DNA from: an uncultured virus (IMG/VR IMGVR_UViG_3300026097_000002)
Taxonomy: Duplodnaviria; Heunggongvirae; Uroviricota; Caudoviricetes; Crassvirales
Strand: one strand, 5' to 3'
Virus record (IMG/VR): IMGVR_UViG_3300026097_000002
Length of the DNA: 20,000 nt
Numbering within the stretch: the first letter of the stretch is position 1; each line of letters opens with the position of its first letter. The notes under the pieces were generated by a model. It searched no databases and had not been told where the DNA came from. It was given only the letters and a program-made list of their open reading frames with translations. A program made the translations under genes and the position numbers. Below are positions 1-7,335 of this stretch, one piece after another.

Positions 1-83
1 GACGCTATGGTCTTCACCGCTGATGATGATAGGTAACGCTTGTTCGCGTGGTACTCCTCGTTTGTCTCTACCTTGGTTGTCAT
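1..83 (-). CDS. N-terminus (partial) of a probable RecE/exodeoxyribonuclease VIII-like PD-(D/E)XK nuclease
   Basis: Manual translation from ATG at 83: MTTKVETNEEYHANKRYLSSSAVKTIA, running off the window. NEEYHA...LSSS.K is the typical N-terminus of this phage family. ATGA overlap with the upstream gene. Confidence 0.55.
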   Translation of the reverse strand, partial: MTTKVETNEEYHANKRYLSSSAVKTIA

Positions 84-379
84 AGGTTCTCTAGCTTTTT
101 AGTTAGGGCGTTTGTTATGTACTTAGACCCACCGAAGTCTCTGATCTGCCTGAGGTACTTGTCCCTCTTGTAGGCCTTCACCCCCTCATCGAAGCCCTGC
201 TCCAAGAAGATCGTGACGATGTCGTTACCTACCTTGACGTAGAAGTCACTCTCGGTGGACAGCATATGGAACCCGTCCTCGTCCTTCACCATCTTCAACC
301 CCTGATACAGTCGCGCCTCGTAGTCTCTTGTACTTAGATCCGCTCCGCGCTCTACAAATTCATTCCAGATGTGTTCCAT
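80..379 (-). CDS. hypothetical protein, 99 aa
   Basis: ORF in the co-oriented cluster, just downstream of a TATATTTG box (389-396). Confidence 0.8.
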   Translation of the reverse strand: MEHIWNEFVERGADLSTRDYEARLYQGLKMVKDEDGFHMLSTESDFYVKVGNDIVTIFLEQGFDEGVKAYKRDKYLRQIRDFGGSKYITNALTKKLENL

Positions 380-388
380 TTCTTTTCA

Positions 389-396
389 CAAATATA
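389..396 (-). promoter_or_regulatory. Bacteroidota-type -7 promoter element (TAnnTTTG)
   Basis: TATATTTG on the minus strand, 9 nt before the ATG at 379. Confidence 0.6.
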
Positions 397-411
397 TGTT
401 TATAAACCATT

Positions 412-606
412 CTAAACAAGCTTTCTCTTAAAAAAGTTTGTCTTCCTGCTTAAATTATTTTTTATCACGAACAGGTCGTAAGCCTTGGCCGCGTCCTTAG
501 GGTCGTCGTAGTACCCAAGCTGAACCGTCTCGTTGTTGTACTTGATCCTAGCTATCCACTTCTTCTGCCCCCTCGATACCCCAAGGTATGGTGTCGTTTT
601 TCTCAT
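412..606 (-). CDS. stand-alone AP2/ERF-domain DNA-binding protein
   Basis: YLGVS...KKWIARIK...LGYYDDPKDAAKAYD matches the AP2 domain signature; no HNH domain attached. Confidence 0.8.
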   Translation of the reverse strand: MRKTTPYLGVSRGQKKWIARIKYNNETVQLGYYDDPKDAAKAYDLFVIKNNLSRKTNFFKRKLV

Positions 607-757
607 ATACTTCTTTTTTATTTTTTAATACTACTTTTATTTTTCTTTGGCTCTCTCATATAGAGTAAAATCGACATTTTCGACACCCCCCTGTATTTAC
701 AGGCCTTCCGAGATGTCGATTTGGTGTCGATTTACCTATCTGGTGTCGATTTTCAGC
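590..757. repeat. origin-like element copy A (TCGACA iterons + AT-rich tract), inverted relative to 5411-5586
   Basis: Exact reverse-complement blocks shared with copy B: 611-629/5548-5566 (19 bp), 667-687/5491-5511 (21 bp), 714-733/5434-5453 (20 bp), 739-753/5414-5428 (15 bp). Confidence 0.9.
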
Positions 758-1080
758 TTTATGGTCACGTTGTCCCACCTGCCGAACCGTCTTTTTTTCG
801 ATACGAGGAAGTCTATTCTGTTCCTCCACCGCTTGTTCATTCGGTCTTCTATGGTCCACTCTCCGTCCATATCACCCGCTCCCGACACGATCACCTTGCT
901 CCCCATAGTGAACCCATCAGCCTCAAGGTCTCTGCTTACCGCTATCCACCTCTCAGGCTTGTATGGGTCTTCTATGGTCTTAAGTGACGCTGTGGTCAGG
1001 TAGTCTTCGTTACACTGAGCAGGATCTGCGTGATATATCGTCGCTGTAACGCAGGCGACTATCAACAGCTCCCTTATCAA
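736..1080 (-). CDS. 3D (Asp-Asp-Asp) domain protein, MltA/RlpA-like cell-wall-acting fold
   Basis: VTATIY...TTAS...IAVSRDL...GSKVIV...EDRM...RIDFL pattern; hydrophobic N-terminus. Confidence 0.7.
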   Translation of the reverse strand: MIRELLIVACVTATIYHADPAQCNEDYLTTASLKTIEDPYKPERWIAVSRDLEADGFTMGSKVIVSGAGDMDGEWTIEDRMNKRWRNRIDFLVSKKRRFGRWDNVTIKLKIDTR

Positions 1081-1496
1081 GATATAAACTTAATCAAAGA
1101 TTCAACAGACTGAAGGTCGTCGCACTCGATAGATCGTCCGTTTCTGCGTACGATAGCCTTACCGTTACTGAAGTTGATGGTGATGCCGTTACCCGCGGTA
1201 ACCTGATGTGATACCACACGCTCGGCGTTAGTCGCAACGCGCTTTGTCTTGTTCTTTATATCTCTCTTGATCCTAGAGGCGATGCTCTTAAGGTTATTGA
1301 AGGTGCGGATGTTTATCTCCTCCTCCTTAAGCCACACGTAGGTACTGCCAACCTTGCCTATGATGTTGGTCTCAAGTAGTGCCTTAATGAAGTAGTACGA
1401 CGCACCGCTGTCCTTAGCTAGTGTGGTTGATGATCTGTACCTAACCTTAGAGCTAAGTAACTGTTTTACGTTCTTGATGTTCTCGAAATTTGTCAT
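1077..1496 (-). CDS. hypothetical basic protein (possible DNA binder)
   Basis: ORF track 1077..1541; the ATG at 1496 (MTNFENIK) after an AT-rich leader is the more likely start. Confidence 0.7.
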   Translation of the reverse strand: MTNFENIKNVKQLLSSKVRYRSSTTLAKDSGASYYFIKALLETNIIGKVGSTYVWLKEEEINIRTFNNLKSIASRIKRDIKNKTKRVATNAERVVSHQVTAGNGITINFSNGKAIVRRNGRSIECDDLQSVESLIKFIS

Positions 1497-1550
1497 TGTA
1501 AATTGAATTAAATAGTTAGTAAAATAAATAAAGTTGTCCAAAAAATTAGT

Positions 1551-1766
1551 TTAATTAATCCTGTTCTCGAATCCATGATAGAGTTTGATGATAGTGAACA
1601 CCTCTTCGTCAGATAGAACGGATGTTACCGTCTGACAGTCGATGATGTACTTATCGTCTAGGGGCTCTACCTCATAGATTACGTAGTTGTTCCCGATGCT
1701 ACCTGTTATCTTGTAGCGCCCGAAACGTTCCTGTACTACGAGTCTTACCATTTTCCTAGTGGGCAT
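1551..1766 (-). CDS. hypothetical protein, 71 aa
   Basis: ORF tiled within the minus-strand cluster. Confidence 0.7.
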   Translation of the reverse strand: MPTRKMVRLVVQERFGRYKITGSIGNNYVIYEVEPLDDKYIIDCQTVTSVLSDEEVFTIIKLYHGFENRIN

Positions 1767-1999
1767 TTAGAGTTAGTAGATAAAGTCTTAGCTGAGATGT
1801 TGCAACCGCAACCACCTACAAGCTGTCCTGTAGCTACGTGCTCGCCCTTCTTGCGGGGGTCACACGTGTTACCTGTTCTGATGTCACAGCTATCGCATAG
1901 CAGTAGCCTGTCCTCCGATAGCCTCTTGGTATCGGGGTCTAGTTGGTTGAACCTGTCCTTGACAACGTTCGCCCACCCTTCTATGATGTCCCGTATCAT
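1745..1999 (-). CDS. small Cys-rich Zn-binding protein (DUF6171-like)
   Basis: RLLLCDSC...C...GCGCNISAKT...CPLGKW. Confidence 0.7.
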   Translation of the reverse strand: MIRDIIEGWANVVKDRFNQLDPDTKRLSEDRLLLCDSCDIRTGNTCDPRKKGEHVATGQLVGGCGCNISAKTLSTNSKCPLGKW

Positions 2000-2157
2000 A
2001 CGTTCTCTCTTAGGTAGGTGGATAGCTTCAGTTGGTTGGATAGGCTAGGACGAGAAACGTCGTCCTTGAGTACGGCGCGAACAAGGTCATGCTCAAGCGC
2101 TATCTCCGGTAGTACACCCACGTCGTCGCAGATGAATTGAAAGTCATTCTGTGTCAT
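1996..2157 (-). CDS. hypothetical protein, ~53 aa
   Basis: ORF track 1996..2178; ATG at 2157 (MTQNDF) preferred; ATGA overlap with the next gene. Confidence 0.65.
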   Translation of the reverse strand: MTQNDFQFICDDVGVLPEIALEHDLVRAVLKDDVSRPSLSNQLKLSTYLRENV

Positions 2158-2263
2158 GCTGTGATAGTTTAAATTCAAGGTTCAGCACCTCGATGTTCAG
2201 GTTGTATATCTCCTTCTCCATAGCGGCTACTCTAGCCCTAAGGAACTCTAACTCTTCTTCCAT
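2144..2263 (-). CDS. 39-aa coiled-coil microprotein (not in ORF track)
   Basis: MEEELEFLRARVAAMEKEIYNLNIEVLNLEFKLSQHDTE; fills the gap between neighbours exactly. Confidence 0.65.
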   Translation of the reverse strand: MEEELEFLRARVAAMEKEIYNLNIEVLNLEFKLSQHDTE

Positions 2264-2265
2264 AT

Positions 2266-2448
2266 CTATGCTTCGTTACGGTTAAACTCTATCTGGTCTA
2301 CAAGGTCCGAGAAGATGTCCGCTAGGTCCCTAGCGTCCTCCCAATCACAGTTCTTCATACAGAAGGTGAAGACCTCCTTAGGTGTCTTGTTAAGTAGCAC
2401 CCTTATGGTGTCGGGGTCGAAGTAGTACTTTCGTGTCATAGTGTCCAA
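2266..2448 (-). CDS. hypothetical protein, 60 aa
   Basis: ORF tiled within the cluster. Confidence 0.7.
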   Translation of the reverse strand: MDTMTRKYYFDPDTIRVLLNKTPKEVFTFCMKNCDWEDARDLADIFSDLVDQIEFNRNEA

Positions 2449-2834
2449 AATTTAAGTCCGTGATTTATTATCGTTTCCTCTACCTGATCGTCCGACGATA
2501 GGTGGTCCTCCTCGTCCGCTAGCCACTCAACTATCTCGTCCTCTAGCTTGTCGATGAAGGCCTCTAGGTCGCCGTCCTGCTTGTAGTCCCTAGCTATGTT
2601 AGCTAGATCGTTGTTGTTCATCATCAGCACTATCTCCTCAGCCACCTGCTCAGGTGGTAGGTATAGCTTGATGCTCGCGGCATCTCTGCTGTGGTATATG
2701 ATATCTATACCCATGTCCTGAAACATATCGTATGTCTCTAGCCACCAACCGTCGTACAGGTTGATCTCTCTGTGCTCCTCTATGGCTATCTGTTTCTGCC
2801 TAGTGGTTAGCTCGTCGTAGTGTAGGTGTCTCAT
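2436..2834 (-). CDS. acidic hypothetical protein
   Basis: ORF track 2436..2876; ATG at 2834 (MRHLHYDEL) overlaps the upstream stop as ATGA; highly acidic C-terminal half. Confidence 0.75.
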   Translation of the reverse strand: MRHLHYDELTTRQKQIAIEEHREINLYDGWWLETYDMFQDMGIDIIYHSRDAASIKLYLPPEQVAEEIVLMMNNNDLANIARDYKQDGDLEAFIDKLEDEIVEWLADEEDHLSSDDQVEETIINHGLKFWTL

Positions 2835-2938
2835 TGTGTTTCGATAAATTCGCAGTGCTCCTTGCACGCACCGCATATGCCTAGGTCCTCGTTGTTAAGC
2901 CACGGTGATGCACCGCAGCAGTCGCTTTCTATGTTCAT
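2831..2938 (-). CDS. 35-aa Zn-ribbon microprotein (not in ORF track)
   Basis: MNIESDCCGASPWLNNEDLGICGACKEHCEFIETQ; ATGA overlaps at both ends. Confidence 0.75.
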   Translation of the reverse strand: MNIESDCCGASPWLNNEDLGICGACKEHCEFIETQ

Positions 2939-3186
2939 ATCTGCTTAATTTCTTTGATTATCTCTTCCTTATTTTCTTCTACGTATTCATGAATCTTACT
3001 GTTGATGAACTCAACGATTTCATCTCCGTATGATAGCAGCACAGACCTCATCTCGTTGTCAAAGAAGCTATCAAACTTATCTTGCTTCGCTACGTATTCT
3101 TTAGCGTCTATCTCATGGTATATTTCTAGGTAGGACTGAACGTCTAGCCCTGACCAACTTACTGCGGGTATAATATCTTTGCTCAT
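2935..3186 (-). CDS. acidic hypothetical protein, 83 aa
   Basis: ORF tiled within the cluster. Confidence 0.75.
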   Translation of the reverse strand: MSKDIIPAVSWSGLDVQSYLEIYHEIDAKEYVAKQDKFDSFFDNEMRSVLLSYGDEIVEFINSKIHEYVEENKEEIIKEIKQI

Positions 3187-3187
3187 C

Positions 3188-3439
3188 TTAATTAAATTTA
3201 TAGTAGTTTGACTGAATGGTTTCTATTAAGTTTCTTCCGTAGGCCGTGTGGAACCCGTAGCTGTGGGTTCCGGTCATCGGCTCGTTCTCTATCAGCAGGT
3301 GAAATAGCTTCACCGCGTTTAGCTTGTACTCCTTAGCTACCGCCCTGCAGGCGCTCACTAGCGCCTCTACGTTGTGTCTAGGGCGTCCGTAGTTCCTTGT
3401 GATGTAGGCCTCAGCCTGCTTTACCGTTAGTGTCTTCAT
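3188..3439 (-). CDS. hypothetical protein, 83 aa
   Basis: ORF tiled within the cluster. Confidence 0.75.
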   Translation of the reverse strand: MKTLTVKQAEAYITRNYGRPRHNVEALVSACRAVAKEYKLNAVKLFHLLIENEPMTGTHSYGFHTAYGRNLIETIQSNYYKFN

Positions 3440-3711
3440 TTGAATTGCTCGTAATAATGGTTAATACTATCGTAGGCGATCTCGTCGCCGGTCTGCTCGT
3501 CGAAGGCGAAGACCTGTATCTGCTCCTCGTCCGTGCGCCCCTCGAATAGGGCTAGGCTTATGCCGTCGTACACCACGTACACGTAGCCGCTCCACTCGTT
3601 GTAGCCCACCTCCTCGATAGACTCTCTATCTACTATGTGGTGTCTGCTGTACAGGTACTCTAGCAGTGCGTTCAGCGAACGTACCTGCCTTAGGTTTCTT
3701 AGGTCAATCAT
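3436..3711 (-). CDS. hypothetical protein, 91 aa
   Basis: ORF with ATGA overlaps at both ends. Confidence 0.75.
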   Translation of the reverse strand: MIDLRNLRQVRSLNALLEYLYSRHHIVDRESIEEVGYNEWSGYVYVVYDGISLALFEGRTDEEQIQVFAFDEQTGDEIAYDSINHYYEQFK

Positions 3712-4025
3712 GGCTCAATAAAGTAGTCTTGGTTAAACGTAAACTTCTGCCCTCTGTAGTTAGGGTTAAATACTAAGCGGCCCTTGCCGTCGCGCTTAAG
3801 CGCTATCGCTTCCTGCGTCGTCTGCTCGCACAGCGTCTGTAGCTGTACGCGGGTCAAGCGCTCGTTCTCGTACACTAGCACTAGCGTAGGCTCAACGTCG
3901 CCCTTGTACTCGCCATCGATAAGGCTCCGCTTGACGGGAGCCCTACCCACTAGCTTGTTCAGGGTCTGCGTTATCTCTTCTGTGGTCTTGGGGTTGTTGT
4001 TCAGCCCGATATTTAGTGTTGTCAT
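3708..4025 (-). CDS. candidate S-adenosylmethionine lyase (T3 SAMase-like)
   Basis: GEYKGDVEPTLVL...LCEQTTQEAIAL...GRLVF parallels T3 SAMase GCY...EKTVRV...LACNEWEQDCVLV...GLVY (recalled from memory); size and early position fit. Confidence 0.5.
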   Translation of the reverse strand: MTTLNIGLNNNPKTTEEITQTLNKLVGRAPVKRSLIDGEYKGDVEPTLVLVYENERLTRVQLQTLCEQTTQEAIALKRDGKGRLVFNPNYRGQKFTFNQDYFIEP

Positions 4026-4252
4026 ATGTGGTTCATTGGTCTAAAGTCCATTGCTCGTACATCGTTGATGTAGCGCTTGCTCAGCACCTTTGATATCACT
4101 TGCACCACGTAGAACATATCTCTTGGCGCGTTCTCAGGTCTGTTGTCCCAAACGTTTCTAGCTTCTCTTAGTGAGCTCTCTAGCCTCTCAGTGCTAACGC
4201 CCTCACAGGCTCTTCTAAAATCCTTTGCAGGTGTTCCAAAAATTGTAATCAT
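4022..4252 (-). CDS. hypothetical protein, 76 aa
   Basis: ORF track 4022..4315; start moved to ATG 4252 (MITIFG) because the extension runs through the hammerhead. Confidence 0.7.
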   Translation of the reverse strand: MITIFGTPAKDFRRACEGVSTERLESSLREARNVWDNRPENAPRDMFYVVQVISKVLSKRYINDVRAMDFRPMNHI

Positions 4253-4266
4253 TGCTTTTGAGTTAT

Positions 4267-4335
4267 GGTTAAGACGCGCAAGCGAATTCGCTTCGCTCAT
4301 ACGCGTTTCGTCCAATAAGGACTCATCAGTTAACC
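4267..4335 (-). ncRNA. type I hammerhead ribozyme
   Basis: Minus strand: GGTTAA-CTGATGA-GTCC TTATT GGAC-GAA-ACGCGT...GCGCGT-C-TTAACC. Complete catalytic core, stems I/II/III and GUC cleavage triplet. Confidence 0.92.
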
Positions 4336-4602
4336 TTTGCTTGACCGGCCGTTATTGTAGATAGACCAATAAACTTCTTGTATCTGAGACTCGGTGTCGA
4401 TTGACTTCATGGTGAAAATGTCCTGCTCGTGCACCTTCTTGGTGCCCCACCTGTTCTCTAGGTAGGTGCTAATCTCGCCGTGCTCGTACATGCTCACCCA
4501 TTTATGCTTTAGGTCTACATCAAAGGTGTACTTGTGTACCTTGCCTTCGGCTAGCTTAAGTTCTTCAGCGATTAGGTTCAGTAGGTCATAGATAGTTTTC
4601 AT
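4330..4602 (-). CDS. hypothetical protein, 90 aa; first gene of the leftward operon
   Basis: ORF; its TAA stop lies within hammerhead stem I. Confidence 0.8.
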   Translation of the reverse strand: MKTIYDLLNLIAEELKLAEGKVHKYTFDVDLKHKWVSMYEHGEISTYLENRWGTKKVHEQDIFTMKSIDTESQIQEVYWSIYNNGRSSKG

Positions 4603-4624
4603 AGTGTGTAGTGTTAATGGTTAG

Positions 4625-4682
4625 TCCCTATGCAAGGTTTCGCTCCTTGGCCACTTAGTGGTAAGCCCGTCGGCACATAGGG
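4625..4682 (-). ncRNA. 58-nt tRNA-like cloverleaf (not a translational tRNA)
   Basis: CCCTATG-T-GCC GACG GGC-TTA-CCAC TAA GTGG-C-CAAGG AGCGAAA CCTTG-CATAGGG-A: 7-bp acceptor-like stem, 5-bp stem with 7-nt T-like loop, shrunken D and anticodon arms. Confidence 0.65.
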
Positions 4683-4696
4683 TTAGGTATCCGAAC

Positions 4697-4799
4697 CTGA
4701 TTCGCCGCGTACTAAGGTCACCCACTTGTTTGTTCGCATATGTTGCGGCCGCATCTTCGTACGGCACTAGTGGTCATCCCTAGGCTAGCAGTAAATCAG
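4697..4799 (-). ncRNA. structured leader RNA domain
   Basis: Nested pairings CTGATTT.CTGC/GCGG.GAATCAG, CTAGGG/CCTTAG and CCACT/AGTGG close two hairpins (GCCGTA/TGCGGC, CGCA/TGCG). Confidence 0.55.
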
Positions 4800-4800
4800 T

Positions 4801-4812
4801 ATTTCAAAGAAC
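4801..4812 (-). promoter_or_regulatory. boxA-like antitermination motif
   Basis: GTTCTTTGAAAT about 30 nt downstream of the promoter; resembles rrn-leader boxA. Confidence 0.45.
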
Positions 4813-4843
4813 GTCCCGACATCATTGTTATCGTTTGACATTG

Positions 4844-4890
4844 CAATGATATGGCAGAATGTTAATACGTGTCAAGTTTTTTTTCAATTA
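4844..4890 (-). promoter_or_regulatory. strong host-polymerase promoter of the leftward operon
   Basis: TTGACA (4875-4870), 18-nt spacer, TATCAT(TG) (4851-4844), upstream A-tract. Confidence 0.7.
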
Positions 4891-4896
4891 TTTTTA

Positions 4897-4928
4897 AAAT
4901 CCCAGCGTTTATGCGGCCTGCGAGAGGT
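4897..4928 (+). repeat. 32-bp direct repeat of 5459-5490
   Basis: AAATCCCAGCGTTTATGCGGCCTGCGAGAGGT vs AAATCCCAGTGTTTATAGGGTCTACGAGAGGT, 27/32 identical. Confidence 0.8.
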
Positions 4929-5410
4929 AAATTTTTTTTTCGATGTTGGATGTTATCAACAAAATATAGGCTCAGCCCACGCTATCAGAGGGATAGGTAG
5001 CGATTTGGTGGGGGTAATGGCCGCGATACAGGCGTTTAATGGTTGACGTTATGGGGACGGGAGTTATTCCTCATCTCAAGGTACCTTGCAATGCAAAATA
5101 ATGCAGAACGAAAACGGTGCTTCATATGCATAAGTAGATTTAAGTAGGTATACACCAGCCACAAACAAAACCTGAAAAGTTTGACTTCATTACATATATA
5201 TAGGAGGGGGGTGGGTAAATAGAAACGACTTTCCTGTGGCGCGCGTGTACGTGAAATATATATATAACCCATTTTCTACATATATCTGATGGTCAAAATA
5301 CCCTTCCCTGATGGTCAGAATTCGATGTCGAAAATGATGTCGATTTTTTAGTTAGGGGTCAATTTAGGCTTGTCTGGAATAATTCTAAATAAGCGTTAGG
5401 GGTAAAATAG

Positions 5411-5586
5411 GCTAAAATCGACACCAGAAAGCAAAATCGACACCAAATCGACACCAAGAAATCCCAGTGTTTATAGGGTCTACGAGAGGTGGTGTCGAAA
5501 ATGTCGATTTTTTTACTCCTTGACAGCCAAAAAAAAAGAAATAAGTAATTAAAAAATAAAAAAGAATATAGGGAAAATTCGTCACC
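5411..5586. repeat. origin-like element copy B (three AAATCGACACC, core, two inverted iterons, A-rich tract)
   Basis: See copy A; a further partial iteron pair lies at 5325-5349. Confidence 0.9.
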
Positions 5587-5597
5587 GGCACCTTTCA

Positions 5598-5605
5598 TAT
5601 CTTTG
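5598..5605 (+). promoter_or_regulatory. Bacteroidota-type -7 element
   Basis: TATCTTTG 4 nt before ATG 5610; TATCTTTGTGGT recurs identically at 7590-7601. Confidence 0.6.
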
Positions 5606-5609
5606 TGGT

Positions 5610-5738
5610 ATGATCAGCATTATTTTACAGCCTCCTCATGCGATGCTAATTGGGTGGGAGAGGATACGGTACGAGGAGGGTAGGTCTCTATGTATTCATT
5701 TATTACTTATTTCGATAGAATTTACGAAATTGGATTAG
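5610..5738 (+). CDS. 42-aa hypothetical protein (not in ORF track)
   Basis: MISIILQPPHAMLIGWERIRYEEGRSLCIHLLLISIEFTKLD, directly after a promoter box. Confidence 0.55.
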   Translation: MISIILQPPHAMLIGWERIRYEEGRSLCIHLLLISIEFTKLD

Positions 5739-5746
5739 TTTTTGCG

Positions 5747-5754
5747 TATATTTG
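5747..5754 (+). promoter_or_regulatory. Bacteroidota-type -7 element for groEL
   Basis: TATATTTG 18 nt before ATG 5773. Confidence 0.6.
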
Positions 5755-5772
5755 CGCATCAAATTGAATCTA

Positions 5773-7335
5773 ATGATCGAAAAAGACATACACTATGACC
5801 GTGAGGCGCGAGAAAAACTGGCTTCAGGCATAAATAAGATCGCTGACGCTGTGAAAACAACCTTAGGCGCGGCGGGAAACACTGTAATCTTAGAAGACGA
5901 GCTAGGCAGGCCTCACATCACCAAGGACGGGGTAACTGTTGCTAGGTCTGTGAACCTATCTGACCCTGTTGAGCACCTAGGTGCCTCTATTATGCGTCAG
6001 GCTTCCATAAAGACGGCGGACGAGGCCGGTGACGGCACCACCACGTCGATGGTTATAGCCCAGTCTCTGGTTAAAAACGCCTTCGAGGCTATAGATTCGG
6101 AGCAGGGGATCAGTGTGAACCAGCTGAGAAGGGACCTAGAGGTGCTCTCTAAGGCTGTTATAGCGGACCTGGAGAAGGTGGCTATACCTGTGACGGACGA
6201 TATGCTGGACAACGTGGCTGCGATATCGGCTAACAACGACACGGAGCTAGGGAAGATCATCGCTAACGCCTACAAGGAGGTTGGTGTGGATGGTGCGGTG
6301 ACGATCGAGCAGTCGATGTCTATGGAGACCTACACGGAGATCGTTGAGGGTACACGTATCAAGAGGGGGTTCCACTCGCCCTATATGGTGACCGACAAGG
6401 AAAAGAACCAAGCTATACTGGAGCGTCCTCTGGTGATGGTATCGGACAAGACGGTGACCTCTATCGACGACATAGAGCCTATCCTGATGGTTGCGGTGCG
6501 CTCAAAGAGGCCACTGCTGATCGTAGCGGACGTAGACATCCCTGTGATGAACACGCTGAACGTGAACAAGGCCAAGGGGGTGATACAGGTGAACGTTGTG
6601 GCCCCGGAGGGGGTGGGTATGAACAGGTTCGAGCTTCTAGAAGACCTAGCGGTGATGACCAGCGCTGTTCTGATATCCGACGAGACGGGTAACGACTTCT
6701 CTGCGGTCGACGAGAGCTTCCTAGGTGAGGCCAAAAAGTCAGTAAGTACTGACAGAGAGACGGTTATAACGCTGGATGGCGAAAAAACCGCTAGCGCGGT
6801 TAAGGAAAGAGCGGATATGGTGAGGCAGCTTATCAAGAAGAACGAGGACAAGTACAACCTTTGGCACCACAAGGATAGGCTATCTAGACTGGCTGGAGGA
6901 GTTGCAGCGATATACGTAGGTGCGCTGACCGAGGTAGAGATGAAGGAGAAAAAAGACCGCGTAGAGGACGCCATACACGCCACAAGGGCTGCCCTATCTG
7001 AAGGAATAGTATCCGGCGGAGGGGTTGCGCTGTATAACATAGCTGACAGGGTAAGTAAGTCAGCAGCCGGTACAATCCTCTCAGAGGCTCTCAGAACTCC
7101 TGTAAGGCAGATTCTCACCAACGCTGGGGTAGACATACCATCGTTCGAACAAAAGGTCCTTAGATCGCGTAAAAAAGGCTACGGGTTAGATGTGAAGAGG
7201 ATGAAGTACGGGAACATGATCGATATGGGGATCATCGACCCGCTTAAGGTGACTAAAAACGCGGTGCTGAACTCAGTTTCGGTGGCGGTGACTATACTAA
7301 CTACGAACTGTGTCGTATCAAACAAGAGAGCATGA
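5773..7335 (+). CDS. groEL: phage chaperonin GroEL (Cpn60)
   Basis: AVKTTLG, ITKDGVTVAR, AGDGTTT, LAGGVA, EMKEKKDRVEDA, EGIVSGGG, GIIDPLKVT. ATG 5773 preferred over TTG 5752, which lies inside the promoter box. Confidence 0.97.
   Translation: MIEKDIHYDREAREKLASGINKIADAVKTTLGAAGNTVILEDELGRPHITKDGVTVARSVNLSDPVEHLGASIMRQASIKTADEAGDGTTTSMVIAQSLVKNAFEAIDSEQGISVNQLRRDLEVLSKAVIADLEKVAIPVTDDMLDNVAAISANNDTELGKIIANAYKEVGVDGAVTIEQSMSMETYTEIVEGTRIKRGFHSPYMVTDKEKNQAILERPLVMVSDKTVTSIDDIEPILMVAVRSKRPLLIVADVDIPVMNTLNVNKAKGVIQVNVVAPEGVGMNRFELLEDLAVMTSAVLISDETGNDFSAVDESFLGEAKKSVSTDRETVITLDGEKTASAVKERADMVRQLIKKNEDKYNLWHHKDRLSRLAGGVAAIYVGALTEVEMKEKKDRVEDAIHATRAALSEGIVSGGGVALYNIADRVSKSAAGTILSEALRTPVRQILTNAGVDIPSFEQKVLRSRKKGYGLDVKRMKYGNMIDMGIIDPLKVTKNAVLNSVSVAVTILTTNCVVSNKRA

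Follow-up and report, generated by a model that had tools for sequence, protein, structure and literature searches.

The 20,000-nucleotide (nt) stretch of DNA analysed here (the window) belongs to an uncultured virus of the Crassvirales, recorded in IMG/VR as IMGVR_UViG_3300026097_000002. On its minus strand, at positions 4625..4682, it carries a 58-nt element that folds like a reduced tRNA, running from the 5' end of an acceptor-like stem to a discriminator A. The element lies 22 nt upstream of the ATG of ORF1, the first open reading frame (ORF) of a run of small minus-strand ORFs, and about 155 nt downstream of a predicted early promoter. Sequence comparison confirms that the element is real, beyond chance. 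We interpret it, with moderate confidence, as a non-decoding, tRNA-derived signal that would recruit host RNase P and the host 3' tRNA endonuclease to the head of a phage early operon. Four computed results lead to this interpretation: the element folds into this shape, it is conserved and covaries, it is akin to other reduced tRNA look-alikes, and its position is equivalent to that of the cut sites of hammerhead ribozymes.

Fold and conservation of the element

Read along the minus strand, the element opens with the 5' strand of a 7-bp acceptor-like stem (CCCUAUG, 4676..4682), which pairs with CAUAGGG (4626..4632) just ahead of the discriminator A at 4625. Between the two strands lie a single U, a miniature D-like hairpin of 3 bp with a 4-nt loop (GCC-GACG-GGC, 4665..4674), the linker UUA, a 4-bp hairpin that replaces the anticodon arm and has a 3-nt loop (CCAC-UAA-GUGG, 4651..4661), a single C, and a T-like arm of 5 bp with a 7-nt loop (CAAGG-AGCGAAA-CCUUG, 4633..4649), which is stacked on the outer stem. 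The minimum free energy (MFE) fold is this same cloverleaf, with its four helices of 7, 3, 4 and 5 bp. It bears out the geometry described in the original prediction, which had been made from the letters of the window alone and had listed the 7-bp stem, the 5-bp arm with its 7-nt AGCGAAA loop, the miniature D arm, the 3-nt loop and the lack of a CCA. The accompanying claim that the element cannot decode holds as well, a 4-bp stem with a 3-nt loop having replaced the anticodon arm. The predicted folding energy is -21.9 kcal/mol (z-score -2.37), and three of 200 shuffled sequences fold as well. The plus strand folds equally well (z-score -2.60), so that the energy alone neither proves the element nor fixes its strand.

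The T-like arm occurs once in the window. It keeps the tRNA residues G53, C56, G57, A58 and C61, with AG replacing UU at positions 54-55. No CCA is encoded, and the end of the stem reads A-CUA. ARAGORN predicted no tRNA in the window and none in G001, a record of the same virus that overlaps the window with 100% identity over 801 nt and adds 41 kb upstream; the element is single-copy in the 61 kb of this phage thus known. Rfam returned nothing at the gathering score, and a search confined to positions 4600-4710 (111 nt) returned nothing at E<=10. Compared with a tRNA, the element has the 7-bp acceptor stem and the discriminator base as well as a T stem and T loop of the right size; the loop is AGCGAAA in place of UUCRANY, the 5-bp/7-nt anticodon arm is missing, and neither ARAGORN nor Rfam detects it. 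On its sequence features, the element is a divergent member, distinguished by the AGCGAAA loop, of a class of reduced tRNA look-alikes, and is not a tRNA.

The comparison of homologous leaders concerns one sequence, L007, a metagenome contig whose ORF1 is 68% identical to that of the window. Two islands are conserved between them, the promoter and the element. The element is identical at 48 of 58 positions and its core at 41 of 45; in the stretch that separates it from the promoter, the leader keeps 65 of 134 aligned positions (49%) and has 118 gap columns. The two mini-hairpins differ by four substitutions, every one of them in a loop: in L007 the D-like hairpin differs only in its loop (AUCG), as does the hairpin in the anticodon place (AUA). 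Three pairs of the outer stem differ. A C-G pair has become G.U and a U-A pair has become C-G, both remaining paired, and one pair has become G.A. The T-like arm is identical in L007 and in eight other viral loci. A 48-aa ORF that overlaps the element (4621..4767, minus strand) was rejected, the alignment with L007 having indels of 11 and 4 columns, which are not multiples of three. No such element was found in L008, which carries an ORF1 homologue of 42% identity, or in L009.

A scan of viral contigs with the 17-nt T arm returned 41 loci. Eight of these read UCCCCUG, 15 nt, CAAGG AGCGAAA CCUUG, CAGGGGA and then A-CUA (A-CCA in L021/L027); their 7-bp stem is in register with that of the window, and the miniature D hairpin is absent. 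We aligned seven sequences, namely the window, L007 and five distinct members of the eight-locus group. In this alignment 98.8% of the cells pair, against 27-61% in controls with slid partners, and four of the seven acceptor-stem pairs change on both sides. The T arm cannot vary in this set, exact identity to it having been the criterion of collection. All lineages retain the 7+5-bp geometry, and in the sequences compared the acceptor stem and T arm form the constant part of the family. The minus strand is favoured by the G.U pairs, which would be A.C on the other strand, and by the conserved sigma-70-like promoter.

Other matches to the 17-mer were set aside: 29 of the 41 loci represent one coding-region coincidence in related contigs, L041 is a chance match, and L048 is the window's own virus. 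In two related contigs (L037/L043, ~1475-1535) the exact 17-nt T arm lies inside a helicase-like ORF and is flanked by an 8-bp inverted repeat (GGCAUGGU/ACCAUGCC), which may be due to chance or may mark an RNA element embedded in coding sequence. A second, looser pattern scan gave 15 loci, nine of them already known; among the six new ones only L100 had a paired T stem (L102 was judged by eye), with GCGGG/CCCGC around the same AGCGAAA loop. The genomes of 185,579 bacterial species contained no match resembling transfer-messenger RNA (tmRNA) with the AGCGAAA loop pattern. A 19-mer found once in bacterial genomes, inside an Algoriphagus ORF and without flanking stems, was considered a chance match.

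Hammerhead ribozymes, tRNAs and the shared slot

The junction between ORF1 and ORF2 carries, also on the minus strand, a type I hammerhead ribozyme (4267..4335, predicted cut 4273/4272). The ORF1 stop codon falls within its stem I (GGUUAA/UUAACC), and the further parts are CUGAUGA, stem II GUCC/GGAC, GAAA, stem III CGCGU.../...GCGCG, and UC. The MFE fold of 4335..4267 is exactly the hammerhead three-way junction, and the segment has the hammerhead core CUGAUGA...GAAA...UH with three stems. The Rfam scores are below threshold, at 24.6 bits for RAGATH-1-hammerhead (gathering score 56.3) and 20.9 bits for Hammerhead_3 (gathering score 48.5). By its core and fold, 4335..4267 is a canonical hammerhead with predicted self-cleavage. 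L007 has two hammerheads, after ORF1 and after ORF2 (1384-1670), in which stem III covaries.

A scan with a 17-mer from stem I and the core found 29 viral loci (L105-L132), and a hammerhead script was then run on 30 sources including the window and L007. It recovered 66-67 distinct hammerheads, among which stem II occurs in 15 and stem III in 36 different sequences, and gave no match in five shuffles of the same 179 kb. Up to seven gene-separating hammerheads are present in one 6-kb locus, and stems II and III covary or vary freely. The RNA past the cuts starts UUAACCA (UUAAUC in one contig), and for 66 of 67 hammerheads an ATG follows the cut within 10-33 nt, mostly within 19-24 nt.

Both kinds of element precede a start codon in the same manner in the window. 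The tRNA-like element is followed by A, CUAACCAUUAAC... and an ATG 22 nt on, and the hammerhead by UUAACCAUAAC... and an ATG 20 nt on. From this match in leader and ATG spacing, the 3' border of the element stands where a ribozyme cut stands. The 22-nt leader module between the element and the ORF1 ATG (CUAACCAUUAACACUACACACU, 4603..4624, minus strand) has no Shine-Dalgarno sequence and corresponds, on this comparison, to the UUAACCA... leaders that hammerhead cleavage produces. ORF2 (4022..4252, minus strand) is listed with a TTG start at 4315; it probably starts at the in-frame ATG at 4252, since the TTG falls inside the hammerhead and this ATG is 20 nt past the cut. In a census of NTAACCA...ATG modules in the same sources, 59 had a hammerhead upstream, six had a tRNA look-alike (one of them doubtful) and 35 had neither.

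A scan for a canonical T arm with CTAACCA 10-11 nt later gave at least 115 viral loci. We analysed 94 unique matches, and the counts that follow are among these matches listed. ARAGORN identifies 24 of them as tRNAs (Arg, Met, Pro, Trp and Leu among them). Another 21 are reduced elements whose acceptor stem pairs 7/7 and whose arms stand 0-36 nt apart, seven are other 7/7 cases (including the tmRNA-like L219), and 42 form fewer than seven acceptor pairs. A 7/7 acceptor stem is present in 48 of the 94, where 6.9 would be expected if the 3' strand were shuffled. In 65 of the 94, among them 19 of the 21 reduced elements, the nearest downstream ATG is 15-27 nt away, and 59 of these 65 ATGs open an ORF of at least 40 aa or one that runs off the locus. 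This start-codon spacing is not explained by chance. L170 reduces the element to a bare minihelix whose arms adjoin each other (0 nt apart). A variety of genes lies behind the elements, and one and the same element can stand before different first genes (L111 compared with L112/L113).

Sister elements of 59 nt, present in L111, L112/L127 and L113/L114, have the same four-helix topology with different sequences and a canonical T loop (GGCUAGC, UGC-AyAGG-GCA, GCGC-GCrACG-GCGU, GGUGG-UUCGAsy-CCACC, GCUAGCU, A). The hairpin in the anticodon place is GCGC-loop-GCGU in L112 and L113 and has GCAC, with one A.C mismatch, in L111. CUAACCAA comes next, and then AUG after 19-24 nt. These elements head operons whose later genes are parted by hammerheads of the same family as that of the window, and L122 and L107/L108 carry three-way versions of them. 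The helices of the window type and the L111 type were compared by a script with hand-set segment lengths, MAFFT having placed them out of register, and the comparison therefore speaks of architecture and not of homology-based covariation. Since the scan that retrieved L111-L113, L122 and L107 demanded paired acceptor and T arms, the pairing of these arms carries no independent weight; the mini-hairpins, tails and positions do count as independent.

The eight AGCGAAA loci of the 17-mer scan have the element close behind a conserved gene of ~200 aa, 8-15 nt past its stop codon. This gene has no PHROG match, no Pfam match and no protein match in the GenBank phage collection. Relatives of this gene, fetched without regard to RNA, gave 34 loci, and ARAGORN was run on 25 of them. 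The slot 3' of the gene holds an AGCGAAA element in seven of the 34 loci and an ARAGORN tRNA in nine of the 25, or in 11 when two sequence duplicates are added. Seven of the nine tRNA calls have an undefinable anticodon of 2 or 4 nt and a long variable anticodon arm, and Rfam scores all four slot elements tested as tRNA, at 55-58 bits. The slots of L072 and L073 contain reduced forms with a canonical UUCGAUU loop, and the stem in L073 is CAAGG/CCUUG as in the window.

The tRNA-like genes in this slot (L056, L058, L061, L063-L067 and L083, at ~2117-2210; 1691-1770 in L063) have good acceptor, D and T arms and probably do not decode. The slot of L060 (~2120-2160) has an acceptor-stem hairpin only, followed by a U-rich tract, and more distant relatives among L069-L084 have terminator-like hairpins after the 200-aa gene. 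From their sequences, the slot contents look like a series that runs from a tRNA-like element to a terminator. Sub-gathering twister-P1 matches of 40.7-57 bits (gathering score 67.2) were also seen in L056 (1401-1457), L058 (1397-1455), L061 (1396-1454), L064 (1398-1456), L086 (270-334) and L087 (2737-2801). Those of L056, L058, L061 and L064 lie ~45 nt upstream of the 200-aa gene, with the tRNA-like element at the gene's other end.

L100 and L219 contain elements resembling a mini-tmRNA with the tRNA-like domain (TLD) only. The element of L100 (401-500, minus strand) is ~100 nt long, has the same AGCGAAA loop and is aligned by Rfam to tmRNA with 38.9 bits (E 2.8e-12), below the gathering score of 47. 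It has the acceptor GGGGGUG/CACUUCC with G3.U70 and also UAGAUUCGAC; GGAC leads into the T arm, and the 3' end is ACCA. Its energy fold is not a cloverleaf (z-score -0.74), and the assignment rests on the Rfam tmRNA matches. The T loop of the Rfam alpha_tmRNA consensus, GGCgGUA, is similar to the AGCGAAA loop. L219 is TLD-like, with a canonical loop and ACUAACCA directly after it. The T loop common to the window element and the tmRNA-like element of another phage offers a second thread of interest. The remote ancestor of the window element may have been either a tRNA or a domain of the tmRNA-like kind.

Proposed processing by host enzymes and the alternatives

In the mechanism that we propose, the early promoter would give a transcript with a leader of ~155 nt, in which the acceptor stem and T arm would stack into a 12-bp helix with a T-type loop, to be measured by host RNase P. 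RNase P would cut 5' of C4682 (4683/4682). The second cut, downstream of the discriminator A4625 (4625/4624), would be the work of RNase Z or, depending on the host, of RNase E-type enzymes; its site is predicted from the slot comparison. The products would be a 58-nt tRNA-like RNA and an ORF1 mRNA beginning with CUAACCAUUAAC..., 22 nt before its AUG, with a leader of the same short, A/C-rich, Shine-Dalgarno-less kind as that of ORF2 after hammerhead self-cleavage. A genuine tRNA in this slot must be excised, and the downstream mRNA then automatically starts CUAACCA; a look-alike would do the same without decoding. In the eight loci with a 3' slot, the RNase P cut would instead make the 3' end of the upstream mRNA. 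The processed end may provide a 5'-proximal, unstructured leader without a Shine-Dalgarno sequence for ribosome entry, or different stabilities for different cistrons, or both. The cleavage itself, the enzymes involved and the use of the processed 5' end in translation or stability are what we infer here.

McClain, Guerrier-Takada and Altman reportedly described acceptor/T-arm minihelices as model substrates of bacterial RNase P in 1987. As in these substrates, the constant part of the family is a 7+5-bp coaxial stack with a 7-nt T-type loop; unlike them, the elements are natural and lie inside mRNAs, and the window version has two extra mini-hairpins and A-CUA instead of RCCA. An encoded CCA inhibits RNase Z, a tail other than CCA permits cleavage by it, and C74 and U75 of the A-CUA could presumably pair (G-C, G.U) with the P15 loop of RNase P. 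RNase P is described as binding the stack of T stem-loop and acceptor stem and measuring from the elbow, with a D loop that is dispensable and a T-type loop that is needed (PMC4919913).

Two uses had been suggested for the element in the original prediction, as an RNase P/Z processing signal and as a decoy for tRNA-targeting defence nucleases. The element stands in the slot of hammerhead cut sites, and elsewhere tRNAs and reduced look-alikes stand directly before the same CUAACCA leader; this positional argument favours the processing signal over the decoy. The decoy found no support: a nuclease would meet no anticodon loop that it could cleave, and a CCA end is lacking in free as well as encoded form. 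A resemblance to eukaryotic mascRNA and to bacterial Y RNAs had been suggested as well, and it holds for shape and possibly for use, not for family membership. mascRNA, at the 3' end of MALAT1, measures ~58-61 nt, has a reduced anticodon arm, does not decode and is thought to be an RNase P/Z handle on a longer transcript. The window element shares its size, its cloverleaf with a reduced anticodon arm and its inability to decode. Unlike mascRNA, which derives from a eukaryotic nuclear long non-coding RNA and undergoes CCA addition and export, it sits in a phage operon and has no sequence or Rfam relation to mascRNA or menRNA at E<=10. In the bacterial Y RNA YrlA, a tRNA-like domain is joined to a Ro-binding helix, near an rsr gene. 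No family of Rfam, which holds a YrlA model, matched over the element at E<=10; there is no long closing helix beyond the 7-bp stem and no Ro-like gene among the ORFs scanned.

The t-elements of plant mitochondria come closer. They lie at mapped mRNA 5' and 3' ends, of which one 5' end and two 3' ends are marked as experimental, and are considered by their authors to be most likely signals for RNase Z and RNase P (Forner et al. 2007, PMC1920247). The window element, too, appears as a non-canonical, non-decoding tRNA-like fold inside a predicted mRNA, with acceptor and T arm kept; it would correspond to the upstream case and the eight 3'-slot loci to the downstream case. The t-elements were found through the pattern GGTTCRANYCC and some of their ends have been mapped. 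The element described here differs in belonging to a phage, in its AGCGAAA loop, in sharing its slot with hammerheads and in that its ends are predicted.

Tandem hammerheads in phage-related polycistronic RNAs are described by Perreault et al. (2011, PMC3088659). A 2019 review treats a role in processing polycistronic transcripts as suggested and not established, and still calls open the role of the thousands of hammerhead and twister ribozymes near phage genes (PMC6765202). The operon in the window resembles these tandem-hammerhead operons in having a type I hammerhead between genes, and differs in that the tRNA-like element itself is no ribozyme. A host-enzyme substrate and a self-cleaving ribozyme at equivalent places before the same leader word suggest that the point of both is the cut and the 5' end that it makes. 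A bolder generalization, which we offer as a speculation with the chances rather against it, is that in many uncultured phages the early operons consist of cassettes, each with its own 5'-end generator (hammerhead, tRNA or tRNA look-alike), all leaving a YUAACCA leader ~20 nt before the start, the free 5' end of this leader without a Shine-Dalgarno sequence being what the host ribosome needs. If this were true, bacterial and phage hammerheads and tRNA mimics would share one long-sought role, that of making translatable 5' ends.

tRNA-like marks on mRNAs are already known from plant mitochondria and MALAT1. In the parts of the literature covered by our search we found no description of such processing marks in bacteriophage operons, although the supplementary tables of a catalogue of phage structured RNAs might list related motifs; that catalogue mentions tRNA-like candidates without this context (PMC10690425). 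The literature searched contained no report of a tRNA look-alike taking the slot of a hammerhead.

Several observations weigh against the processing signal. The class of census modules with neither a hammerhead nor a look-alike is large (35 of 100), many of its members probably being chance words. A search for gene families in which the hammerhead and the tRNA look-alike replace each other was negative, none of 87 clusters of downstream ORFs being mixed; no ORF1 homologue behind a hammerhead was present among the fetched loci. Consequently, interchangeability is shown for the slot and not for a gene. Part of the at least 115 matches to the T arm and CTAACCA pattern could be due to chance, given the shortness of the TAACCA word and the abundance of tRNA genes. 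The AGCGAAA loop departs from the tRNA consensus at positions 54-55 and is identical in three contexts (the leader of the window and L007, the slot behind the 200-aa gene and the tmRNA-like L100), a constancy that looks like sequence-specific recognition, more demanding than that by RNase P or Z. No conserved ORF was found behind the CUAAC tail in the eight 3'-slot loci. Finally, the distant ORF1 homologue in L008 has no element upstream, so that, in the sequences compared, the gene does not need it.

Among the alternatives, we consider it unlikely that the element acts in cis without being cut, shielding the mRNA from 5' decay or serving as a ribosome standby or enhancer platform beside the CUAACCA leader. 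Such a role would suit the constant distance of ~20 nt between leader-type members and the start codon and the lack of a Shine-Dalgarno sequence in the leaders, cleavage being only predicted. However, eight members follow a gene and have no conserved ORF behind them, tRNAs, which need excision, occupy the same place in 24 of the 94 matches listed, and hammerheads, which certainly cut, hold the equivalent place.

A slightly smaller chance is given to the released 58-nt RNA being the working product, a stable mimic of a tRNA or of the tmRNA TLD that would titrate or recruit SmpB, the CCA-adding enzyme, a modification enzyme or a defence protein, the decoy included. The identity of the AGCGAAA loop across its three contexts, with its hint of sequence-specific recognition, speaks for this possibility, as do the same loop in the tmRNA-like L100, the similar T loop of the alpha_tmRNA consensus and the further TLD-like element of L219. 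The window element does resemble the tmRNA TLD and TLD-only mini-tmRNAs in that it lacks an anticodon loop but has both acceptor stem and T arm. It differs from them in having C3-G70 instead of G3.U70, A-CUA instead of an ACCA end and no single-stranded D-loop analogue, and it has no Rfam match to tmRNA or tRNA at E<=10; its relative L100 has the tmRNA features at a sub-gathering score. A 'CGAC' resembling the tmRNA D loop is not kept in L007 (CAUC), no bacterial tmRNA with an AGCGAAA-type T loop was found in the 185,579 species genomes, and the element offers anticodon nucleases no loop of the kind that they attack.

A decaying relic without function, either a shrunken tRNA gene or the scar of a cassette exchange at a recombination-prone module border, is improbable in view of the conservation pattern. 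The relatives do grade from full tRNA-like genes via three-way forms to the acceptor-only hairpin of L060 and terminator-like hairpins, and the gene content behind the element differs between close relatives (L111 compared with L112/L113, and ORF2 of the window compared with that of L007). Nevertheless, the core of the element is nearly unchanged in L007 beside a leader full of large indels, and the substitutions avoid the stems or compensate within a 7+5-bp geometry common to all lineages. The least credible alternative, and by a little the most improbable, is an early-leader RNA that binds a protein or the polymerase (a put/nut-like antiterminator or a translational operator) and resembles a tRNA by coincidence: the position ~155 nt after a strong promoter, the similar position of the L100 element ~130 nt after a TTGACA-17-TATAAT promoter and the conserved loop sequence would fit it, but the sister elements, which stand at the same place, differ in their stem sequences and have a canonical UUCGA T loop, the slot of the eight 3' members can also hold tRNA-like genes that score as tRNA in Rfam, and no terminator was found after the element in the window.

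The operon and its surroundings

The predicted promoter of the operon (4846..4875, minus strand) is sigma-70-like, with TTGACA, a spacer of 18 nt and TATCAT (11 of 12 hexamer matches), and would drive the leader that contains the element; its stretch from -35 to -10 is identical in L007 at 24 of 30 positions. The poorly conserved 5' leader upstream of the element (4683..4838, minus strand, ~155 nt) would begin near 4838, judging from the promoter. ORF1 (P0001, 4330..4602, minus strand, ATG at 4602) encodes 90 aa and has 10 relatives with 53-91% identity; it has no PHROG match and a single, sub-threshold match in Pfam. The small minus-strand ORFs extend over 80-4602, and nine of the ten tested have no PHROG match. 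The GenBank phage collection gave no DNA match to 4300-5800. With its promoter, tRNA look-alike, gene, hammerhead and next start codon, the 700-bp fragment 4200-4900 makes a simple test system for the proposed processing. Divergent from the early operon lies a GroEL-like chaperonin gene (5752-7335, plus strand; phrog_5725, E 9e-135), and tail-fibre genes are present from ~11 kb onward in the window.

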